DNA from: Escherichia phage LYE-01
DNA: 64,000 nt
Sequence record: PQ303785.1
Strand: one strand, 5' to 3'
Below, piece after piece: positions 4,229 to 25,151 of this stretch. Numbering within the stretch: position 1 is the first letter of the stretch; the number at the start of each line of letters is the position of its first letter. Position numbers and translations under genes: made by a program. A model generated the notes under the pieces. That model did no database searches, had not been told where the DNA came from, and saw only the letters and a list, made by a program, of their open reading frames with translations.

Positions 4229-6483
4229 TTAATGTTATCAAAAGTAGTGGTGTTTCTCAAAGCTTTGACCCGCAAAAAATTATTAAAGTTTTATCTTGGG
4301 CAGCTGAAGGAACATCTGTAGATCCTTATGAATTATATGAAAATATTAAATCATATCTCCGTGATGGAATGACAACTGATGACATTCAGACTATTGTCAT
4401 TAAGGCTGCTGCGAATTCTATTTCAGTTGAAGAGCCTGATTATCAATACGTAGCTGCACGCTGTTTAATGTTTGCTCTTCGTAAACATGTGTACGGACAA
4501 TATGAACCACGTTCATTTATTGACCATATTTCTTACTGTGTAAATGAAGGTAAATACGACCCTGAACTGTTGTCAAAATATTCAGCAGAAGAAATTACAT
4601 TTTTAGAATCAAAAATTAAGCACGAACGGGATATGGAATTTACTTATTCCGGGGCGATGCAATTAAAAGAAAAATATCTCGTTAAAGATAAAACCACTGG
4701 TCAAATTTATGAAACTCCACAGCTTGCATTTATGACTATTGGAATGGCATTGCATCAAGATGAACCTGTTGACAGATTAAAACATGTTATTCGTTTTTAT
4801 GAAGCAGTATCTACTCGACAGATTTCATTGCCAACTCCTATTATGGCTGGTTGTCGTACTCCAACTCGGCAGTTTAGTTCATGCGTTGTTATTGAGGCAG
4901 GTGATTCGCTGAAGTCTATCAACAAAGCTTCTGCTTCAATTGTTGAATATATCTCCAAACGAGCTGGAATTGGCATTAACGTTGGTATGATTCGTGCCGA
5001 AGGTTCTAAGATTGGCACAGGTGAAGTGCGTCATACTGGTGTTATTCCTTTTTGGAAACATTTTCAGACTGCTGTTAAATCATGTTCACAGGGCGGAATT
5101 CGTGGCGGCGCTGCTACTGCTTATTATCCTATTTGGCATTTGGAAGTTGAAAATCTTCTCGTTTTGAAAAATAACAAAGGCGTAGAAGAAAACCGTATCC
5201 GTCATATGGATTATGGTGTCCAGCTGAATGATTTGATGATGGAACGTTTTGGAAAGAACGACTACATTACTTTGTTCAGTCCGCATGAAATGGGTGGCGA
5301 GCTTTATTATTCTTATTTTAAAGACCAAGACCGTTTCCGTGAATTATACGAAGCAGCAGAAAAAGATCCTAATATTCGTAAAAAGCGTATTAAAGCTCGT
5401 GAACTATTTGAATTGCTCATGACTGAACGCTCAGGAACAGCAAGGATTTATGTGCAGTTCATTGATAATACGAATAACTATACTCCGTTTATTCGTGAAA
5501 AGGCACCTATTCGTCAGAGTAACTTGTGTTGTGAAATTGCTATTCCAACAAATGATGTGAATAGTCCTGATGCTGAAATTGGATTGTGCACGTTATCTGC
5601 ATTTGTGTTGGATAACTTCGATTGGCAAGACCAAGATAAAATTAATGAATTAGCAGAAGTTCAAGTTCGCGCTCTTGATAATCTTTTGGATTACCAAGGA
5701 TATCCAGTTCCTGAAGCAGAAAAAGCTAAAAAGCGTCGAAATCTTGGTGTAGGTGTTACCAACTATGCAGCTTGGCTGGCAAGTAACTTTGCTTCTTATG
5801 AAGATGCTAACGATTTAACACATGAACTATTTGAGAGATTACAGTATGGACTCATTAAAGCATCCATTAAGCTCGCCAAAGAAAAAGGACCTTGCGAATA
5901 TTATTCAGACACTCGTTGGTCTCGAGGCGAATTACCTATCGACTGGTACAATAAAAAGATTGACCAAATCGCAGCTCCAAAATACGTTTGTGACTGGTCG
6001 GCGCTGCGGGAAGACCTTAAGCTCTTTGGCATCCGTAATAGCACATTATCAGCACTTATGCCATGTGAGTCATCTTCCCAAGTTTCTAACAGTACAAACG
6101 GTATCGAGCCTCCACGTGGACCAGTCTCTGTTAAAGAATCAAAAGAGGGTTCCTTTAATCAAGTCGTGCCCAATATTGAACATAACATAGACCTATATGA
6201 TTATACGTGGAAATTAGCTAAGAAAGGTAATAAACCTTATCTTACGCAGGTAGCTATTATGCTGAAATGGGTATGTCAATCAGCTTCAGCGAATACATAT
6301 TATGACCCGCAGATTTTTCCAAAAGGAAAGGTTCCAATGTCTGTAATGATTGATGACCTTTTGTACTTTTGGTATTTTGGCGGAAAAAATTTCTATTATC
6401 ATAATACCCGTGATGGTTCTGGTACTGATGATTATGAAATAGAAACTCCAAAAGCTGAAGATTGTTCATCCTGTAAATTATGA
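4219..6483 (+). CDS. nrdA: ribonucleotide reductase large subunit
   Basis: 754 aa, T4 NrdA length, class Ia RNR features, position. Confidence 0.95.
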   Translation: MQLINVIKSSGVSQSFDPQKIIKVLSWAAEGTSVDPYELYENIKSYLRDGMTTDDIQTIVIKAAANSISVEEPDYQYVAARCLMFALRKHVYGQYEPRSFIDHISYCVNEGKYDPELLSKYSAEEITFLESKIKHERDMEFTYSGAMQLKEKYLVKDKTTGQIYETPQLAFMTIGMALHQDEPVDRLKHVIRFYEAVSTRQISLPTPIMAGCRTPTRQFSSCVVIEAGDSLKSINKASASIVEYISKRAGIGINVGMIRAEGSKIGTGEVRHTGVIPFWKHFQTAVKSCSQGGIRGGAATAYYPIWHLEVENLLVLKNNKGVEENRIRHMDYGVQLNDLMMERFGKNDYITLFSPHEMGGELYYSYFKDQDRFRELYEAAEKDPNIRKKRIKARELFELLMTERSGTARIYVQFIDNTNNYTPFIREKAPIRQSNLCCEIAIPTNDVNSPDAEIGLCTLSAFVLDNFDWQDQDKINELAEVQVRALDNLLDYQGYPVPEAEKAKKRRNLGVGVTNYAAWLASNFASYEDANDLTHELFERLQYGLIKASIKLAKEKGPCEYYSDTRWSRGELPIDWYNKKIDQIAAPKYVCDWSALREDLKLFGIRNSTLSALMPCESSSQVSNSTNGIEPPRGPVSVKESKEGSFNQVVPNIEHNIDLYDYTWKLAKKGNKPYLTQVAIMLKWVCQSASANTYYDPQIFPKGKVPMSVMIDDLLYFWYFGGKNFYYHNTRDGSGTDDYEIETPKAEDCSSCKL

Positions 6484-15470: not shown

Positions 15471-15719
15471 ATGATTAAACAATTACAACACGCTCTTGAA
15501 CTGCAACGAAACGCATGGAATAATGGTCACGAAAACTATGGCGCATCTATTGATGTTGAAGCCGAAGCTCTTGAAATCCTGCGTTATTTCAAACATCTGA
15601 ATCCTGCTCAAACTGCATTAGCTGCTGAGCTTCAGGAAAAAGATGAACTTAAATATGCTAAGCCTCTGGCTTCTGCTGCACGAAAAGCAGTTCGTCACTT
15701 TGTGGTAACATTGAAGTAA
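15471..15719 (+). CDS. rIII: rIII lysis-inhibition accessory protein
   Basis: 82 aa, position downstream of gene 31 as in T4. Confidence 0.75.
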   Translation: MIKQLQHALELQRNAWNNGHENYGASIDVEAEALEILRYFKHLNPAQTALAAELQEKDELKYAKPLASAARKAVRHFVVTLK

Positions 15720-15964
15720 TTTATTGGAGATTCACTGCCTTAGTGTGAGCTAAAATCGAGGAGCCGTCGAACTGTCTGATTAATGATTTGCGAATCATTA
15801 TAGTTTTAAGACCCCGGCAGTTTTACGGTGTACCTCTTGAATGTGAATGATGACGGGTTTATGGTTATCCTGGTCGTTAAATATCCAAAAACCTATGTTC
15901 CCCTTGAGGGCTTGCGCAGGCAATGCCAATAAGTCCTGCATTTTCATTTAAAAGAGAATTTATA

Positions 15965-16141
15965 ATGGCAAAACAAGCTAAAGCAAAGAAAGCAGTTGAA
16001 AAGAAAGTTGGTGATTCTAAACGCGCTGGTTACAAGCGTGGGTCGAACTCTCGTATCAATCAAACTGTTGAGAAGATCATGCGCCGAGCACGTGCGGTTC
16101 TTCGAGATGATGCTTCTCGTTTTGGTAAGCAGAAAGCATAA
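15965..16141 (+). CDS. small highly basic protein, 58 aa (30.9 position)
   Basis: MAKQAKAKKAVEKKVGDSKRAGYKRGSNSRINQ...; an alternative ATG at 15923 gives 72 aa. Confidence 0.5.
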   Translation: MAKQAKAKKAVEKKVGDSKRAGYKRGSNSRINQTVEKIMRRARAVLRDDASRFGKQKA

Positions 16142-16144
16142 GTT

Positions 16145-16172
16145 GAGGACTCCTTCGGGAGTCCTTTTTTAT
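16145..16172 (+). terminator. Rho-independent terminator
   Basis: GGACTCC TTCG GGAGTCC hairpin plus T6. Confidence 0.7.
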
Positions 16173-16194
16173 TTTCCAAAGATTGCACAAAGTT

Positions 16195-16243
16195 GTTTAC
16201 AGTATAGTTCCTTTGTGATAGTATTATCTTACACAAACAAAGG
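16195..16243 (+). promoter_or_regulatory. T4-type early promoter with stem-loop
   Basis: GTTTACA at 16195, 17-nt spacer, TAGTAT; CCTTTGT/ACAAAGG inverted repeat. Confidence 0.45.
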
Positions 16244-16251
16244 AGAATAAA

Positions 16252-16584
16252 ATGAAAACGATTAATCTGAACGCTGCGGTTAAAGCTAAATGTTTCAATG
16301 GTGAATATAACGAAACTATGTGGTTCTTAATGGCAGTTGAAGGTGATATTATTGAAGTAGAAACAACAGAAGGTATGGGAACAGATTTCACCTTTACAAT
16401 TCAAGTTCATAATTTCTTTACTGGTTGGATTTATGAATTGAATACAGTAATCGTTGGAAAAATTGAACAAAATGAATTAGGTGAATGGTATTATGTTACA
16501 GCTCGCCAACGTGCAGAACGCTTAATTGAGAAGATGAAAAAAGTTGGCAAACTTGACATGCAGCACTGGAAAGTAGTAAAATAA
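16252..16584 (+). CDS. hypothetical protein, 110 aa
   Basis: ORF with AAGGAGA RBS. Confidence 0.5.
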   Translation: MKTINLNAAVKAKCFNGEYNETMWFLMAVEGDIIEVETTEGMGTDFTFTIQVHNFFTGWIYELNTVIVGKIEQNELGEWYYVTARQRAERLIEKMKKVGKLDMQHWKVVK

Positions 16585-16586
16585 TT

Positions 16587-16626
16587 GTTTACTTTGGTAC
16601 AGGATATGATATTATATACCTGTACC
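16587..16626 (+). promoter_or_regulatory. T4-type early promoter with stem-loop
   Basis: GTTTAC at 16587, TATTAT at 16610, inverted repeat GGTACAGG/CCTGTACC. Confidence 0.5.
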
Positions 16627-16652
16627 GCAATTAAACATCTTGGAGAATAAAA

Positions 16653-17018
16653 ATGAACTACATCAACTTTGAACGTAAATATGTTTCTAACGGTATTGCA
16701 GGTTCTATTGATACTATTTGCCTTTGGAAACATCAAAATGGATCAGTATGCGAAATTGAACAGTATATGACTCCTAACTACGTTTATATGCGATTTGAAA
16801 ATGGCATCACGGTTTCAATCACGAAAGAAGGTTCTTCTTTTAAAATCGCATTAGATGATGATTTCCGTCAACGCGATTTAGGTACTCATCCTTGCTGGAA
16901 TGGCGTCAATCGTAAGCTTCTGGTTAAAACTTGGATTCGTCATATTCTGAGTAACAGAGCTAAACCTGAGCATCTTGAAGCGATCTTTGATGTAGTTCTT
17001 AATGAATTTGATATTTAA
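16653..17018 (+). CDS. hypothetical protein, 121 aa
   Basis: ORF with GGAGAA RBS. Confidence 0.5.
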   Translation: MNYINFERKYVSNGIAGSIDTICLWKHQNGSVCEIEQYMTPNYVYMRFENGITVSITKEGSSFKIALDDDFRQRDLGTHPCWNGVNRKLLVKTWIRHILSNRAKPEHLEAIFDVVLNEFDI

Positions 17019-17026
17019 AATAAAAT

Positions 17027-17042
17027 AGGGGCTTCGGCCCCT
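17027..17042 (+). terminator. GC hairpin (UUCG-type tetraloop), probable terminator or RNA stability element
   Basis: GGGGC TTCG GCCCC. Confidence 0.45.
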
Positions 17043-17058
17043 TACTGAGGAAAATACT

Positions 17059-17346
17059 ATGTTTATGACTACTTATTTTGATACTCGTAAAAATTTTTGC
17101 GAAGTAGTTTTCTCTAAGGCGCCTAAAGACCTTCCTGCTCATTTGCAGCCTACCAGTGAATCGATTAAAAACTACGTTAATGTAGTATGTCCTTTAGAGT
17201 TCCGTACTGTAAATGGGCGTGATACTCTAGCTATCGCTAAACTCAATCGTGAAATTGACATTGACCCTTCAATTGCGCGTGAAATTAACATTTCTGATAT
17301 TGACGGCGGTAATGTTAAATCGCATGGTTTTCAGATGAGGTTCTAA
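17059..17346 (+). CDS. hypothetical protein, 95 aa
   Basis: ORF with GAGGAAAA RBS. Confidence 0.5.
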   Translation: MFMTTYFDTRKNFCEVVFSKAPKDLPAHLQPTSESIKNYVNVVCPLEFRTVNGRDTLAIAKLNREIDIDPSIAREINISDIDGGNVKSHGFQMRF

Positions 17347-17543
17347 TGAAATTCTTTTTGGGTCAAACTGTTGAATTAAAGGGAGTCGGTATACCTGGAT
17401 TAATTTCTAAGGTTCTACCTCCATTTAAATGGAGTGGTATTCAAATAAAAGAGGCTTATATTGTTTCCTGGGTAGATGGAAATGAAGACCTTCGTATGGG
17501 TGATGAATTATCTCCTATCTATGGATTAAAGGAATTAGTATGA
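17346..17543 (+). CDS. hypothetical protein, 65 aa
   Basis: ORF, TAATG overlap with upstream gene. Confidence 0.45.
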   Translation: MKFFLGQTVELKGVGIPGLISKVLPPFKWSGIQIKEAYIVSWVDGNEDLRMGDELSPIYGLKELV

Positions 17544-17746
17544 ATATAATTAATAAGATTTTTGGAATTCAGTACATTAAGGTCACATATAAAGTAACGT
17601 ATAAAGGTCCGTATACCGATGAACATGAAGAACCACAAGTTAAGTCTATTATATTAGAAAAGGACCCTAACTGGCCAGTTGAATTTCGTCTTCCTTGCTA
17701 TGGTCATTGGGCTGATGTTGAAATTATAAGTATTGAAAATGTCTGA
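17540..17746 (+). CDS. hypothetical protein, 68 aa
   Basis: ORF, ATGA overlap. Confidence 0.45.
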   Translation: MNIINKIFGIQYIKVTYKVTYKGPYTDEHEEPQVKSIILEKDPNWPVEFRLPCYGHWADVEIISIENV

Positions 17747-18197
17747 GCTAGAAATAAGAAGCAATTTTAGATGGCCATCATGTGCATTAAGCAATTTCGC
17801 CCAATGGCCTTTCGTTATGGATGGTATCCAATTTGGAGGTCTCGAAGGATTCCTTCAAGGATGTAAGGTGAAAAATGCTGAACAACAACGTCGTATATTT
17901 GGGTTATCCGGGCTTGCCGCCCAACAAGCTGGAAGGTCTTATGCTAGAGCTCAAGACCGTGGGACCCTCTTCTGGCTTGGAGTTCCGTTTTCAAGATACT
18001 CTCCAGCGTGGAAAGAATTATACACAAATGCATACTTTGAAGCAGCGATCCAAAACAAGGGCTTTCGTGATGCATTACAAGCCTCGAAAGGAAAAGTTTT
18101 GAAGCACAGCATGGCTAGTGGTCTAACAAAAGATGATACAATACTAACCGAAGCTGAATTTATTGATGTGTTAAACCTATTAAGAGACTCTCTATGA
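17739..18197 (+). CDS. NADAR/YbiA-like (DUF1768-like) domain protein, about 152 aa
   Basis: LSNFAQWPFVMDGIQFGGLEGFLQGCK resembles the core of E. coli YbiA as I recall it (FSNFAAWPIKVDGKTWPTSEHYFQAQKF); ATG 17739 preferred over TTG 17733. Confidence 0.55.
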   Translation: MSELEIRSNFRWPSCALSNFAQWPFVMDGIQFGGLEGFLQGCKVKNAEQQRRIFGLSGLAAQQAGRSYARAQDRGTLFWLGVPFSRYSPAWKELYTNAYFEAAIQNKGFRDALQASKGKVLKHSMASGLTKDDTILTEAEFIDVLNLLRDSL

Positions 18198-19033
18198 AGC
18201 CTACTATTTTAACTGATATTGATGGAGTATGTTTAAGCTGGCAATCAGGTCTTCCTTATTTTGCTCAAAAATATAATCTTCCATTAGAACATATTTTAAA
18301 AATGATCCAAGATGAGAAATTTATTTCTCCAGGTAAACTCTTTAATTGTGACGAAGAACTTGGCGTCAAGTTAATTGAAAAATACAATCGTTCAGATTTT
18401 ATTCGTTACTTGTCTCCGTATAAAGATGCCCTGTGTGTAATTAACAAATTAAAGGAAGATTATAATTTTGTAGCTGTTACAGCATTGGGCGATTCTATTG
18501 ACGCTCTGTTGAATCGTCAATTTAATTTGAATGCTCTTTTTCCTGGTGCCTTCTCAGAAGTAATGATGTGTGGTCATGATTCTTCAAAAGAAGAGCTGTT
18601 CAAAAAGGCAAAAGAGAAATATAACGTAATTTGTTATATTGACGATCTCGCTCATCACTGCGATCATGCAAGTGAAATATTAAATGTTCCTGTTTATTGG
18701 ATGGCTCGAGGGGAGCGTGATAATATTCCAAAAACTGCTCAGCGAGTTTATACATGGAATGATGTAGAAAATAAGCTTTTTTCGCCGAAGGAAAATAAAG
18801 AAAGTTTTGATAGTGAAAAAGCTATAAAAGATTTAATTGAGAAGATGGTTAAAAACGATTCTTTTCCTTGGAACACTACCTGGAGAACGCCTGGATTAAA
18901 TCCTTATAATCATCTATATCATCCATATCAGACACATCCGTTTCAGACATGGAACTATATTAAACCTGGTGGCATAGAGTATTTGTATAATAGACCTACT
19001 AGTGGTGATAATATTTTTCAAGGAGCATTCTAA
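18194..19033 (+). CDS. hypothetical protein with HAD-like N-terminal DxDxV motif, 279 aa
   Basis: LTDIDGV at the N-terminus; ATGA overlap with upstream ORF. Confidence 0.5.
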   Translation: MKPTILTDIDGVCLSWQSGLPYFAQKYNLPLEHILKMIQDEKFISPGKLFNCDEELGVKLIEKYNRSDFIRYLSPYKDALCVINKLKEDYNFVAVTALGDSIDALLNRQFNLNALFPGAFSEVMMCGHDSSKEELFKKAKEKYNVICYIDDLAHHCDHASEILNVPVYWMARGERDNIPKTAQRVYTWNDVENKLFSPKENKESFDSEKAIKDLIEKMVKNDSFPWNTTWRTPGLNPYNHLYHPYQTHPFQTWNYIKPGGIEYLYNRPTSGDNIFQGAF

Positions 19034-19302
19034 TGTTTGTTGTTCATACTATTTATGAAAATGAAGGTAATACTACACGTGATTACGGTCACGTAAATCA
19101 ATTTTTTAGATGCAATCCAGAATTCCGTGCTCAAAAAGACGAACGAATTTTTAAAAAATGTGTAGAACAAGGTTTCATTTACGTCAAGCACTGGATGCAA
19201 GGAAATAAAGTTAGAACTACATATCATAGGTCTTTGCCTGAGCTTAATGATGAATTGATTTATAATAGAGCTGTAAACCAAACCTTGAAGGATGAGCAAT
19301 GA
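19033..19302 (+). CDS. hypothetical protein, 89 aa
   Basis: ORF, coupled to ligase gene. Confidence 0.45.
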   Translation: MFVVHTIYENEGNTTRDYGHVNQFFRCNPEFRAQKDERIFKKCVEQGFIYVKHWMQGNKVRTTYHRSLPELNDELIYNRAVNQTLKDEQ

Positions 19303-20759
19303 TTCTTAAAATTCTGAATGAAATAGCATCTATTGGATCAACTAAGCAGAAGCAAGCAATTCTTGAAAAGAATAAAGATAATGAATTGCTTAAACGAGTA
19401 TATCGTCTGACTTATTCTCGTGGGTTACAGTATTATATCAAGAAATGGCCTAAGCCTGGTATTGCTACCCAGAGTTTTGGAATGCTGACTATTACCGATA
19501 TGCTTGACTTCATTGAATTCACGTTAGCTACTCGGAAATTGACTGGAAATGCAGCAATTGAGGAATTAACTGGATATATCACTGATGGTAAAAAGGATGA
19601 TGTTGAAGTTTTGCGTCGGGTTATGATGCGAGACCTTGAATGCGGTGCTTCAGTATCTATTGCAAACAAAGTTTGGCCAGGTTTAATTCCTGAACAACCT
19701 CAAATGCTGGCAAGTTCTTATGATGAAAAAGGCATTAGTAAGAATATCAAGTTTCCAGCCTTTGCGCAGTTAAAAGCAGATGGAGCTCGGTGTTTTGCTG
19801 AAGTCCGAGGCGATGAATTAGATGATGTTCGTCTTTTATCGCGAGCTGGTAATGAATATCTAGGATTAGATCTTCTTAAGGAAGAGTTAATCAAAATGAC
19901 TGCTGAAGCCCGCCAGATTCATCCAGAAGGTGTGTTAATTGATGGCGAATTGGTATACCATGAGCAAGTTGAAAAGGAACCAGAAGGCCTAGATTTTCTT
20001 TTTGATGCTCCTGAAATCAGTAAAGCTAAAGAGTTTGCCGAAGTAGCTGAATCTCGTACTGCTTCTAATGGAATCGCTAATAAATCTTTAAAGGGAACTA
20101 TTTCAGAAAAAGAAGCCCAATGTATGAAGTTTCAGGTCTGGGATTATGTTCCGTTGGTAGAAATATACGGTCTTCCGGCGTTTCGTTTAAAATATGATGT
20201 ACGTTTTTCTAAACTAGAACAAATGACATCAGGATATGATAAAGTAATTTTAATTGAAAACCAAGTAGTAAATAACCTAGATGAAGCTAAGGTAATTTAT
20301 AAAAAATATATTGACCAAGGTCTTGAAGGTATTATTCTCAAAAATACCGATGGATTGTGGGAAAATGCTCGTTCAAAAAATCTCTATAAATTTAAAGAAG
20401 TAATTGATGTTGATTTAAAAATTGTAGGAATTTATCCTCACCGTAAAGACCCTACTAAAGCGGGTGGATTTATTCTTGAATCAGAGTGTGGAAAAATTAA
20501 AGTAAATGCTGGTTCAGGCTTAAAAGATAAAGCCGGTGTAAAATCACATGAACTTGACCGTACTCGCATTATGGAAAACCAAAATTATTATATTGGAAAA
20601 ATTCTAGAGTGCGAATGCAATGGTTGGTTAAAATCTGATGGTCGCACTGATTACGTTAAATTATTTCTTCCAATTGCGATTCGTTTACGTGAAGATAAAA
20701 CTAAAGCTAATACATTCGAGGATGTATTTGGTGATTTTCATGAGGTAACTGGTTTATGA
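19299..20759 (+). CDS. 30: ATP-dependent DNA ligase
   Basis: 486 aa, MILKILNEIASIGSTKQKQAIL...; adenylation lysine motif KADGAR. Confidence 0.95.
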   Translation: MILKILNEIASIGSTKQKQAILEKNKDNELLKRVYRLTYSRGLQYYIKKWPKPGIATQSFGMLTITDMLDFIEFTLATRKLTGNAAIEELTGYITDGKKDDVEVLRRVMMRDLECGASVSIANKVWPGLIPEQPQMLASSYDEKGISKNIKFPAFAQLKADGARCFAEVRGDELDDVRLLSRAGNEYLGLDLLKEELIKMTAEARQIHPEGVLIDGELVYHEQVEKEPEGLDFLFDAPEISKAKEFAEVAESRTASNGIANKSLKGTISEKEAQCMKFQVWDYVPLVEIYGLPAFRLKYDVRFSKLEQMTSGYDKVILIENQVVNNLDEAKVIYKKYIDQGLEGIILKNTDGLWENARSKNLYKFKEVIDVDLKIVGIYPHRKDPTKAGGFILESECGKIKVNAGSGLKDKAGVKSHELDRTRIMENQNYYIGKILECECNGWLKSDGRTDYVKLFLPIAIRLREDKTKANTFEDVFGDFHEVTGL

Positions 20760-20944
20760 AAGCTTACTTAGAAACAATTGTCGTGGCTCAAAAAGAAGGT
20801 GGAGATGTTTCTACTTCGGTATCACAAGTCATTCTCGAATTTGTAGATGCATATGCTTATAATAAATTTACAGAAACATTTGATGCCTACGAAAAAGGTC
20901 CAAAGTTTGAAATATATCGTACTCTCTTACCACTAGATTATTAA
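20756..20944 (+). CDS. hypothetical protein, 62 aa
   Basis: ORF overlapping ligase stop. Confidence 0.45.
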   Translation: MKAYLETIVVAQKEGGDVSTSVSQVILEFVDAYAYNKFTETFDAYEKGPKFEIYRTLLPLDY

Positions 20945-20966
20945 AGGCCTTCGGGCCTTTAATTTT
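20944..20966 (+). terminator. Rho-independent terminator closing the early gene block
   Basis: AAGGCC TTCG GGCCTT hairpin then T-rich tract. Confidence 0.6.
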
Positions 20967-20973
20967 ATAAATA
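20966..20973 (+). promoter_or_regulatory. late promoter TATAAATA upstream of Alt-like genes
   Basis: Exact TATAAATA 24 nt upstream of ATG 20997. Confidence 0.5.
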
Positions 20974-20996
20974 GAATAAACACTAGAGAGGATATG

Positions 20997-23090
20997 ATGG
21001 AACTCATTACAGAATTATTTGACGAAGATACTACTCTTCCGATTACAAACTTAAATCCAAAGAAGAAAATACCACAAATTTTTTCAGTTCATGTTGATGA
21101 TGCAATTGAACAACCAGGCTTTCGTTTATGTACCTATACATCTGGAGGTGATACTAATCGCGATTTAAAAATGGGCGATAAAATGATGCATATTGTTCCT
21201 TTTACATTAACTGCTAAAGGTTCAATTGCTAAATTAAAAGGTCTCGGTCCAAGTCCAATTAATTACATCAATTCAGTTTTTACTGTTGCAATGCAGACGA
21301 TGCGTCAGTATAAAATTGATGCCTGTATGCTTCGTATTCTTAAGTCTAAAACTGCTGGTCAAGCTCGACAAATTCAAGTTATTGCTGATAGACTTATCCG
21401 TAGTCGTTCAGGTGGCAGATACGTCCTTCTTAAGGAACTCTGGGATTACGATAAAAAGTACGCATATATTCTTATACATCGCAAAAATGTATCACTAGAA
21501 GACATTCCAGGAGTTCCGGAAATTAGTACCGAGCTTTTTACTAAAGTCGAATCGAAGGTCGGCGATGTTTATATCAATAAAGATACTGGAGCTCAAGTAA
21601 CTAAAAATGAAGCAATTGCAGCATCTATTGCGCAAGAAAATGATAAACGTTCTGACCAAGCTGTAATCGTTAAAGTTAAAATTTCCCGTAGAGCAATTGC
21701 GCAAAGTCAATCATTAGAATCTTCTAGATTTGAAAGCGAATTATTCCAGAAGTATGAATCTACCGCAGCCAATTTTAATAAGCCTGCTACTGCTCCTTTA
21801 ATTCCAGAAGCAGAAGAAATGAAGCTTGGAATTAATTCATTAGCTTCTAAAACTAAGGCAGCAAAAATCATTGCCGAAGGAACCGCAGATGAACTTCACT
21901 ATGACTATAAATTCTTTTCAAAAAGTGAGGTTAATGAAGTTTCTGAAAAAATTAAAGATGTAATTCTTAATGCGATTAAAAATGAACCAACTACTTCAAT
22001 AAAATGTTTAGAGAAATACGCAGCAGCTGTTAATCAATTCTTTGAAGAATATAAAGATAATTGGCTTGATAAACATAATAAAACTCGTAAAGGACAGCCA
22101 GATGAAGTCTGGGAAGAAATAACTAAAAATTCCTGGAACGCAGCAAAAACTAAATTCCTCAAACGAATGATTTATAGCTTTTCTGGAATTGGTGCAGGTC
22201 CAATGATTGATATTACCATTGCCCGTGATGGTTCTAAATACACTCCATCGCAAAAGCGCGGAATTAGAGAGTATTGCGGATCAGGATATACTGACATCAA
22301 TAATCTTCTTTTAGGCCGCTACAATCCAGAACGATATGATGTAATGAGTGAAAAAGAAATTGAATCTGCGATAAATAATTTAGATTCAGCTTTTGAAAAT
22401 GGTGACCGTATACCAGAAGGCATTACAGTTTATCGTGCTCAAAGTATGACTGCTCCTATATATGAAGCACTAGTTAAAAATAAAGTGTTCTATTTCAGAA
22501 ATTTTGTATCTACTTCTTTAACTCCTATCATTTTTGGACGTTTTGGAATTACACATGCTGGTATCGGTCTTTTAGAACCAGAAGCTCGCAATGAATTAAC
22601 AGTTGATAAAAATGAAGAAGGAATAACTATTAATCCAAACGAAATAAGAGCGTATAAAGAAAATCCTGAATACGTTAAAGTTCAAATAGGATGGGCTATT
22701 GATGGAGCTCATAAAGTTAATGTTGTATATCCAGGAAGTCTCGGAATAGCAACAGAAGCTGAAGTTATTCTACCACGCGGATTGATGGTCAAAGTTAATA
22801 AAATAACTGATGCTTCTAATAATGATGGAACAACATCTAATAATACAAAACTCATTCAAGCTGAAGTTATGACTACGGAAGAACTCACCGAATCGGTAAT
22901 TTATGACGGTGACCGTCTAATGGAAACTGGTGAATTGGTTGCAATGACAGATGATATTGAAATAGAAGACAGAGTTGACTTTGCATCATTTGTTTCATCA
23001 AATGTTAAACAGAAAGCAGAATCATCTCTCGGAATTATTGCGTCTTGCATAGATATTACAAACATGCCTTACAAGTTCGTTCAAGGATAA
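20997..23090 (+). CDS. Alt-like ADP-ribosyltransferase paralog A (R-S-EXE type), about 697 aa
   Basis: N-terminal MELITELFD... region shared with the downstream paralog; C-terminal motifs VYRAQ, FVSTSL, EAEVILPRG. Confidence 0.8.
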   Translation: MELITELFDEDTTLPITNLNPKKKIPQIFSVHVDDAIEQPGFRLCTYTSGGDTNRDLKMGDKMMHIVPFTLTAKGSIAKLKGLGPSPINYINSVFTVAMQTMRQYKIDACMLRILKSKTAGQARQIQVIADRLIRSRSGGRYVLLKELWDYDKKYAYILIHRKNVSLEDIPGVPEISTELFTKVESKVGDVYINKDTGAQVTKNEAIAASIAQENDKRSDQAVIVKVKISRRAIAQSQSLESSRFESELFQKYESTAANFNKPATAPLIPEAEEMKLGINSLASKTKAAKIIAEGTADELHYDYKFFSKSEVNEVSEKIKDVILNAIKNEPTTSIKCLEKYAAAVNQFFEEYKDNWLDKHNKTRKGQPDEVWEEITKNSWNAAKTKFLKRMIYSFSGIGAGPMIDITIARDGSKYTPSQKRGIREYCGSGYTDINNLLLGRYNPERYDVMSEKEIESAINNLDSAFENGDRIPEGITVYRAQSMTAPIYEALVKNKVFYFRNFVSTSLTPIIFGRFGITHAGIGLLEPEARNELTVDKNEEGITINPNEIRAYKENPEYVKVQIGWAIDGAHKVNVVYPGSLGIATEAEVILPRGLMVKVNKITDASNNDGTTSNNTKLIQAEVMTTEELTESVIYDGDRLMETGELVAMTDDIEIEDRVDFASFVSSNVKQKAESSLGIIASCIDITNMPYKFVQG

Positions 23091-23093
23091 ATC

Positions 23094-25151
23094 ATGGAAC
23101 TTATTACAGAATTATTTGACGGCGCTTCGGCGCCGGTTGTTAACTTAAATCCTAAGCATAAAATACCTCAAATTTTTGCTATTCAAGCAGGCGAAGAAAG
23201 CGTGCTTCCTGGATTTAGATTTTGTACATACACCTCTGGCGGTGATACAAATAAAAACGTTAAGCCAGGCGATAAAATGATGCATATCGTAATGATAGGT
23301 GTCAATGAGAAACTATCATTAGTTAAACTTAGAAACTTGGGTGGAAATCCAATTGGTGTCATTAATGCGGTTTTTGATACTGCTCTTCAGACAATGAAAC
23401 AATACAAAATTGACGCATGCTTATTCCGCGTACTAAAGAGTAAAACAAATGGTGCAGCTCGTCAAATGCAAGTTATTGCCGACCGTTTAGTACGTACTAA
23501 AGGAGCAGGTCGATATGTTCTTTTAAAGGAAATCTGGGATTACGATAAAAAGTACGCATATATTATGGTTTACCGTAAAAATGCTAATTTAGAAGACATT
23601 CCAGGTGTACCTCCTATTTCAACTGAGTTATTCACAAAAGTTGAATCAAAGGTTGGTGATGTTTATGTAGATGTTAAAACAGGTAATGCTGTTCCTAAAG
23701 CTGTTGCTGTTGCTGCTTCTATTGCTTTAGAAAATGATAAGCGCACGGATCAAGCTGTTATTCAGAAAACTAAAATTAGTCGTCGGTTAGCAGCACAAGC
23801 TCAATATTCTACTGTCGATGCTTCACTTCAGGGTGATAGCTTCGCTGCTAAGAAATATCAAGAGTTTGAATCTAAAGTTCCGGTATATAAAGCAGAAGGA
23901 CCAATGAACTCTGGCGTTATTCAGGTTGGTTCAAACTTCAGCAAAGGAGCTATCGGTGGTATGAGAAGTGCTTCCCGTTTTAAATCTAGTGATTATGAAT
24001 TAGAAAGCTTCCGAAATCATATTGCATTGGCTCATGCGCGTTTACGTGATCCATCTATCAAGTTACAGAGCGATATATCATATCAAGGTTCTCAAGAATA
24101 TTTAAAGAATAAAGAATTTTTTGATTATAAAACTGATAAAATTTTAAGTGATCTTGCTGACATTAATATTTCTAATAGCTTTGATGTTATTAAGAAAATT
24201 GTCAATGATTTAGTTAAAGGTTCTAAAGCCACACCAGATGAAAAGGTAGCTATTGTTCAATTTGTCATGAATGGCGTTTATAAATTGATTAATGAGTCTG
24301 CTTCTCAAGCGTATGAATATGCAAGTACTGAAGTAACTCCAAAAGGATTAACTCAGGCTGAGTCTGATGTAATTGAAGATTATTGTGCAGATTCATATGT
24401 TGAAATGAACTCGTTCCTTTTAGGTAAACCGGATTCTACTCGTGAAGAATACATGGAACGAGCTATTAAACACATCGAGACAATGGATTCTGCCTTTGCC
24501 AAAGGATCAGTTCTTCCTCCAGGAACTACACTTTACCGTGGACAAGAAGTTACCTTTAAAACTTTACGTCATAATATTGAAAATAAAATGTTCTACTTCA
24601 AGAACTTCGTATCCACATCGCTTAAACCAAATATCTTCGGTGAGTATGGTAAAAACTATATGGCTCTAGATGATTCCGGCGCAGTATTTTCTGGTGAAGG
24701 AGAAGGTTCAGTTGACGCAGAAGATTTGATGCATATGGGCAGTCACTCTGCTTATGCGAATGAAGATGCTGAAACTAGCGTGGGTATGGTAATTAAAGGA
24801 GCTGAGCGAATCAAAGTTATCGTTCCAGGACATTTATCAGGATTTCCATCAGAAGCTGAAGTTATTTTACCGCGTGGAATTTTGCTGAAGATTAATAAAG
24901 TGAGTACGTACATGATGAAAGAAACTGCTTATAATAAGTATCTAATCGAAGGCACAATCGTTCCTCCTTCTGAACAATTAGAAGAATCGGTATATGATGG
25001 CGACCATCTAATGGAAACTGGTGAAGTTCGTCCAATGGCTGGATTTAATCAATTCCTTGTAGAAGAATCAAAAGAAGAGGAAAACGAAGTTTCTCAAATC
25101 TTGGCTTCTTTGGTTAACATCAACGGAATGTCTAAAAAGTTCAAGATGTAG
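23094..25151 (+). CDS. alt: Alt-like ADP-ribosyltransferase paralog B (probable alt), 685 aa
   Basis: MELITELFD... N-terminus; LYRGQ, FVSTSL, EAEVILPRG motifs; adjacent to gene 54 as T4 alt. Confidence 0.75.
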   Translation: MELITELFDGASAPVVNLNPKHKIPQIFAIQAGEESVLPGFRFCTYTSGGDTNKNVKPGDKMMHIVMIGVNEKLSLVKLRNLGGNPIGVINAVFDTALQTMKQYKIDACLFRVLKSKTNGAARQMQVIADRLVRTKGAGRYVLLKEIWDYDKKYAYIMVYRKNANLEDIPGVPPISTELFTKVESKVGDVYVDVKTGNAVPKAVAVAASIALENDKRTDQAVIQKTKISRRLAAQAQYSTVDASLQGDSFAAKKYQEFESKVPVYKAEGPMNSGVIQVGSNFSKGAIGGMRSASRFKSSDYELESFRNHIALAHARLRDPSIKLQSDISYQGSQEYLKNKEFFDYKTDKILSDLADINISNSFDVIKKIVNDLVKGSKATPDEKVAIVQFVMNGVYKLINESASQAYEYASTEVTPKGLTQAESDVIEDYCADSYVEMNSFLLGKPDSTREEYMERAIKHIETMDSAFAKGSVLPPGTTLYRGQEVTFKTLRHNIENKMFYFKNFVSTSLKPNIFGEYGKNYMALDDSGAVFSGEGEGSVDAEDLMHMGSHSAYANEDAETSVGMVIKGAERIKVIVPGHLSGFPSEAEVILPRGILLKINKVSTYMMKETAYNKYLIEGTIVPPSEQLEESVYDGDHLMETGEVRPMAGFNQFLVEESKEEENEVSQILASLVNINGMSKKFKM

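Follow-up and report, generated by a model that had tools for sequence, protein, structure and literature searches.

The locus examined here raises the question of whether a short open reading frame (ORF) in the 30.x gene cluster of Escherichia phage LYE-01 encodes a NADAR-type enzyme and, if so, whether such an enzyme is directed against a host defence or towards the ADP-ribosylation carried out by the phage itself. The window analysed is a 64,000-nucleotide stretch of sequence record PQ303785.1, in which the initial annotation had placed an ORF of about 152 aa with a YbiA-like motif inside the 30.x cluster; its coordinates, the quoted motif, and the T4 gene order were all confirmed (Table 1). 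In the ORF listing, the reading frame starts with ATG and encodes a product of 152 aa, and an in-frame TTG at 17733, two codons upstream of this ATG, gives a 154-aa alternative. The quoted string, LSNFAQWPFVMDGIQFGGLEGFLQGCK, corresponds to residues 17-43 of the 152-aa product.

The start of this ORF and the stop of the 68-aa ORF before it (30.4) overlap by 8 nt, and the TGA stop of this ORF shares the tetranucleotide ATGA with the ATG of the next ORF (30.2), which is followed by an 89-aa ORF matching Pfam DUF3045 (30.1) and then by the 486-aa ORF assigned to the ligase. The resulting order, 30.4-30.3-30.2-30.1-30 (DNA ligase), is the T4 order annotated in NC_000866; Bp7, MN01, and Acinetobacter phage ZZ1 share this order. 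Hundreds of Tequatrovirus genomes match the region at 97-99% DNA identity, the best matches being in Escherichia phages FL33/FL34 (98.8%). From general knowledge of T4 and from the initial annotation, we take the 30.x cluster to be an early cluster. A scan of 15500..21200 for promoters and terminators returned sites no more numerous than those in shuffled sequence and, thus, says nothing on transcription units.

Table 1. Coordinates of adfN, its catalytic codons, and neighbouring features in the LYE-01 window
Feature	Position	Strand	Basis
adfN (T4 gene 30.3) CDS, 152 aa, predicted NADAR-fold DNA ADP-ribosylglycohydrolase	17739..18197	+	ORF listing, Pfam, T4 identity, AlphaFold, Foldseek
Glu36 codon, catalytic residue	17844..17846	+	Invariant in alignment A1 (40 sequences); context GGLEGFL; aligned to Glu of YbiA SEHYFQAQK
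Lys43 codon, catalytic residue	17865..17867	+	At least 90% conserved in A1; aligned to Lys of YbiA FQAQK
Nested ORF 30.3', 75 aa, +1 frame inside adfN	17875..18102	+	ORF listing; preceded by AAGGTG-N5-ATG
His123 codon, last strand	18105..18107	+	Invariant in A1 (40 members); context VLKHSMA
C-terminal helix, residues 138-152	18150..18194	+	Intact; helix 138-151 in AlphaFold model
Gene 30.2, HAD-superfamily phosphatase-like, 279 aa	18194..19033	+	ORF and ATGA junction, DxDG motif, AlphaFold, Foldseek; context only
DNA ligase (gene 30), 486 aa	19299..20759		Place in T4 order and 'DNA ligase' annotation of matching phage records
Two tandem Alt-like ADP-ribosyltransferase paralogs after the ligase gene, 698 and 685 aa, 41% identical	20994..23090, 23094..25151	+	

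The identity of the product was established by profile and sequence comparison. Pfam PF08010 (Phage_30_3, 'Bacteriophage protein GP30.3') was matched over its full length (profile positions 1-138 of 138) at 234.1 bits (E = 5.2e-70) against a curated gathering score of 36, and the product also matched PHROG 652, to which no function is assigned there. T4 gp30.3 has the same length and is identical at 150/152 residues (99%); the two differences, V47A and I125M, are conservative and neither falls at a catalytic position. At position 125, Met is the commonest residue in that column of the family alignment (A1), which comprises 40 diverse gp30.3 family members down to about 35% identity. A tblastn search with gp30.3 found matches in 1510 phage records, most of them Straboviridae of Escherichia, Klebsiella, Shigella, Aeromonas, Acinetobacter, and Vibrio. 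The PF08010 score, the identity with T4, and this tblastn spread exclude a chance ORF. It corresponds to T4 gene 30.3, of which it is the ortholog and which now bears the name adfN (anti-DarT factor NADAR).

Assignment to the NADAR fold followed a less direct route. The HMM check suggested in the initial annotation had a divided outcome: the single sequence of the window product gave no match to Pfam PF08719 (NADAR) at E<=1, whereas 16 of the 40 A1 members match that profile individually (best E = 1.5e-7). Searches of NCBIfam and PADLOC with the window product returned no match. In the absence of a single-sequence match to PF08719, NADAR membership rests on profile and fold evidence. The only PDB match of the single sequence at E<=10 was E. 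coli YbiA (2b3w), itself marginal (E = 1.3), and the relationship was further strengthened by using the A1 profile, which reached YbiA with E = 0.004 in hmmsearch and with a probability of 93.9% in hhalign (E = 1.6e-7, 91 columns), the ExxxQxxK catalytic helix being aligned. An AlphaFold2 model built on A1 (mean pLDDT 93.1, pTM 0.88) was compared with the PDB using Foldseek, and its top three matches were YbiA 2b3w (E = 8e-5, TM 0.67), 8bau, and 8bat, with all others at E>2. The entry 8bau is a Phytophthora NADAR (PnNADAR) bound to ADP-ribose, and 8bat is the Geobacter lovleyi NADAR; the only credible PDB fold matches of the predicted structure are, therefore, the three solved NADARs. The YbiA/NADAR resemblance noted from the letters alone was in this way recovered by sequence, profile, and structure, and the assignment of gp30.3 as a small single-domain NADAR-fold protein is supported through several independent routes.

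The comparison with YbiA also bears on what the active site may do. In the hhalign alignment, LEGFLQGCK (E36, Q40, and K43, with Q40 invariant in A1) lies on YbiA SEHYFQAQK; the alignment stops at K122 and, when extended by one residue, places His123 opposite the Glu of YbiA ...AKLVEH.... In the published signature of the last strand, Glu marks the YbiA family, Asp the DarT1-linked BC4488 family, and His the phage gp30.3 proteins (PMC11125620). His123, standing in place of the third acidic residue, is neither the Glu of the narrow YbiA family nor the Asp of DarG1/BC4488. A housekeeping role of the YbiA type, in which gp30.3 would be an N-glycosidase acting on riboflavin-pathway intermediates, could be read from the position of YbiA as the best sequence and fold match and from the annotation of the E. 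coli gene as 'N-glycosidase YbiA', assigned to riboflavin intermediates. However, the Glu that defines the YbiA family is replaced by His, identity to YbiA is about 18-24%, the published tree puts the gp30.3 group nearest the DarT1-linked NADARs and not with the YbiA group (PMC11825919), and damage control of riboflavin would serve no evident need of a lytic phage. The motif SNFA..P...DG....E..FQ..K is common to YbiA and the window product. Unlike phage adfN, ybiA lies on the chromosome, in a LexA-controlled cluster together with dinG, and its product also hydrolyses guanosine-ADPr in vitro (PMC11125620). We regard the riboflavin role as extremely improbable.

The integrity of the allele was considered in light of known mutants. 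E36A and K43A each impair AdfN(T4), and in the RB69 allele a frameshift removes the last 15 residues, leaving activity reduced or defective (PMC11825919). Residues 126-152 of the window product are identical to those of T4 gp30.3, so a truncation of the RB69 type is not present. With catalytic E36/K43 kept and the C-terminus intact, the window allele of adfN looks functional at the sequence level. Beyond the shared residues and length, it has in common with AdfN(T4) its neighbours (30.4 upstream; 30.2, 30.1, and ligase downstream), E36/K43/H123, and the C-terminal helix, and it differs, apart from the two substitutions, in being carried by another Tequatrovirus (closest to FL33/FL34, 98.8% DNA identity) with two Alt paralogs. 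Orthology, NADAR fold, catalytic residues, and the intact C-terminus were all obtained in the present analysis.

The function of the T4 protein has been described in two studies. Cihlova et al. (Toxins 2024, PMC11125620) reported that, in vitro, purified T4 gp30.3 cleaves ADP-ribose off the guanosine of a DNA substrate but not off thymidine, and that every NADAR assayed acted on guanine-ADPr in DNA, whereas thymidine-ADPr was a substrate for none of them. Rescue from DarT toxicity by expression alone, suggested as a check in the initial annotation, had already been attempted there, and T4 gp30.3 failed to rescue uninfected E. coli from DarT1 (PMC11125620). Methods section 4.2 of that paper gives the T4 construct as 'gp30.3; residues 1-208', a discrepancy with T4 gene 30.3 and the window ORF, both of which encode 152 aa. 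Using RB69 x T2/T4 chimeras, Johannesman et al. (Nat Commun 2025, PMC11825919) mapped DarTG1 resistance to gene 30.3 and renamed it adfN. T4 and T2 lost the ability to plate on DarTG1 hosts once adfN was deleted, so that the sensitisation the initial annotation had looked for was found; plating of RB69 on such hosts was restored by ectopic adfN, and this restoration was impaired by E36A, K43A, or an RB69-like truncation (PMC11825919). [quoted passage not shown] The proposal of an anti-defence hydrolase that reverses DarT-type DNA ADP-ribosylation has, thus, been demonstrated for a protein 99% identical to the window product (PMC11825919, PMC11125620). Since the anti-DarTG1 function of gene 30.3 was published in 2024-2025, nothing is new in the identity or function of the gene. 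By analogy with the T4 protein, the same enzymatic activity and anti-DarTG1 phenotype would be expected for the window product, and we infer that the V47A/I125M allele behaves like T4 AdfN.

Taken together, the window ORF is very probably an adfN ortholog encoding a NADAR glycohydrolase that reverses DarT1 guanine ADP-ribosylation of phage DNA. Under this explanation, adfN, lying in the 30.x cluster and transcribed toward the DNA ligase gene, would give rise to a free-standing NADAR glycohydrolase. When a DarTG1-carrying host is infected, the DarT1 toxin would ADP-ribosylate guanine bases of the phage DNA and block its replication; AdfN would then hydrolyse the ADP-ribose-guanine bond via Glu36, Lys43, and probably His123, so that unmodified DNA would be restored and replication could proceed. 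AdfN would in effect be an orphan, phage-domesticated relative of a DarG1-type antitoxin.

The other function offered by the initial annotation, regulation of the phage's own Alt/Mod ADP-ribosylation, would have gp30.3 reverse or tune the modification of the protein or RNA targets of Alt, ModA, and ModB and not counter a host defence. The two Alt-like paralogs about 3 kb downstream speak for such a role, but Alt and Mod enzymes modify arginine, a linkage other than guanine-ADPr. The restriction of full AdfN(T4) activity to T-even infection can likewise be read in its favour, whereas the reported deletion phenotype is a specific loss of plating on DarTG1 hosts (PMC11825919), every NADAR tested is specific for guanine-ADPr in DNA (PMC11125620), and the gp30.3 family also occurs in other phage families, beside unrelated genes. 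The regulatory proposal found no support in the analysis and is considered very unlikely. A separate observation concerns alt itself: the stretch of the T4 record that was compared has a single alt gene, at that stretch's edge, versus two Alt paralogs in the window.

The kinship of AdfN with bacterial antitoxins and with other phage NADARs was further examined by comparing their properties. The DarG1/DarT1-associated NADAR antitoxins (BC4488 family, e.g., 8bat) have the fold predicted for the window protein, and they share with AdfN(T4) both the removal of guanine-ADPr in DNA and the opponent DarT1 (PMC11825919, PMC11125620). They differ from the window protein in carrying Asp and not His in the last strand and in their length (219 aa in 8bat versus 152 aa), the window protein having no N-terminal extension and starting about 15 residues before the SNF motif; there is also no darT adjacent to the window gene. 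Neither flanking gene is ADP-ribosyltransferase-like, since 30.4 is a 68-aa ORF without a Pfam match and 30.2 is HAD-like, and PADLOC gave no match. A further difference is that AdfN(T4) cannot serve as an antitoxin in uninfected cells (PMC11125620). AdfN(Bas32) and AdfN(Bas60), from T5-like and Vequintavirinae phages, are, like AdfN(T4), phage-borne orphan NADARs countering DarTG1; they fall into other NADAR clades, stem from independent acquisitions, and are active without any T-even factor (PMC11825919).

Beyond the Straboviridae, the gp30.3 family is present in a Rhizobium phage (Pootjesviridae, P10VF) and a Ralstonia phage (Ackermannviridae, RSP15), and metagenomic homologs of 35-45% identity lie on phage-like contigs, some of 300-400 kb, amid small unannotated genes. 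In one of these, the 308-kb, jumbo-phage-sized contig ENA ERZ12302817 NODE_6, a homolog of 39% identity (5001..5468) lies near NUDIX and Thg1-like genes, which shows that the family extends beyond the T4 group to phage-like genomes of very large size. No DarT-like gene was found beside gp30.3 homologs at any locus examined (metagenomic contigs, ZZ1, P10VF, and RSP15), which fits an orphan antitoxin status for the family. The breadth of the tblastn result, with hosts ranging from Escherichia to Acinetobacter, Aeromonas, Vibrio, Rhizobium, and Ralstonia, also suits a wider reading, raised by the authors themselves in their Discussion, in which anti-DarTG1 activity is one role among several and the main natural targets are other guanine- or RNA-directed ADP-ribosylating defences (PMC11825919). 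Tests so far have shown no other substrate, and DarTG2 is not countered (PMC11825919); this wider reading is possible though doubtful, and it would extend the explanation given above and not contradict or replace it. Among the annotations of these homologs, most T4-like database records label gene 30.3 'hypothetical protein', and in the Rhizobium phage record (KM199770.1), P10VF_077 is annotated as a 'putative homing endonuclease'. Database annotations of gp30.3 homologs trail the AdfN literature.

The reading of AdfN as an anti-DarT1 glycohydrolase leaves one aspect of its activity to be accounted for. AdfN(T4) reaches its full activity only in the course of a T-even infection, for which the authors propose a T-even factor, and it rescues T5 and Bas25 only weakly (PMC11825919). 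Since it fails to neutralise DarT1 in uninfected E. coli and the rescue of T5/Bas25 is weak, the picture of a free-standing antitoxin is incomplete, and a T-even factor or context is needed. Hydroxymethyl/glucosyl DNA modification as the cause of this specificity was rejected by the authors, as T4-GT7 behaved like the wild type (PMC11825919).

The neighbouring gene 30.2, usually annotated as a 'hypothetical protein', was considered as a source of such a factor. Sequence searches of Pfam and PDB with gp30.2 gave no match, but its N-terminal DxDG motif is invariant (D8/D10/G11), and AlphaFold gave a confident HAD-superfamily domain over residues 1-195, followed by a low-confidence C-terminal tail of roughly 80 residues. 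Foldseek returned HAD hydrolases; among them, 5'(3')-deoxyribonucleotidases gave the most compact matches. The gene occurs in 1452 phage records, its host counts come close to those of 30.3, and it adjoins 30.3 even in remote Straboviridae, Acinetobacter phage ZZ1 among them. In three metagenomic phage lineages, no significant tblastn match to 30.2 was found within about 5 kb of the gp30.3 homologs, and none is annotated beside the homolog in Rhizobium phage P10VF or Ralstonia phage RSP15. Joint occurrence of 30.2 and gp30.3 outside T4-like phages, as a sign of coupling, was accordingly rejected, the adjacency being confined to Straboviridae, where ordinary T4-like synteny could explain it equally well. 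The ATGA overlap of the adfN stop and the 30.2 start may couple the translation of the two genes, and the fact that the Bas32/Bas60 NADARs, which work without the factor, lie outside the gp30.3 clade has a bearing on the proposal. That gp30.2 is the T-even factor required for full AdfN(T4) activity is judged unlikely; if it were, AdfN would be one half of a two-protein counter-defence module.

A second ORF, 30.3', is nested within adfN itself. The AAGGTG that precedes it is Shine-Dalgarno-like, with its AAG being the codon of the catalytic Lys43, and the T4 record annotates 30.3' as being translated internally in another frame. In T4, Bp7 (Dhakavirus), and MN01 (Gaprivervirus), this frame is open and has a common start and stop; the main-frame proteins of Bp7 and MN01 are about 85% identical to that of the window, yet the 30.3' frame stays open. 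As the missing T-even factor, 30.3' was ruled out because it lies inside a gene that has already been expressed ectopically.

The value of the present finding is mainly the correct annotation of a gene mostly called 'hypothetical protein'. In the T-even phages, adfN accounts for resistance to the DarTG1 toxin-antitoxin defence, and with an allele that looks functional, phage LYE-01 should likewise resist DarTG1.
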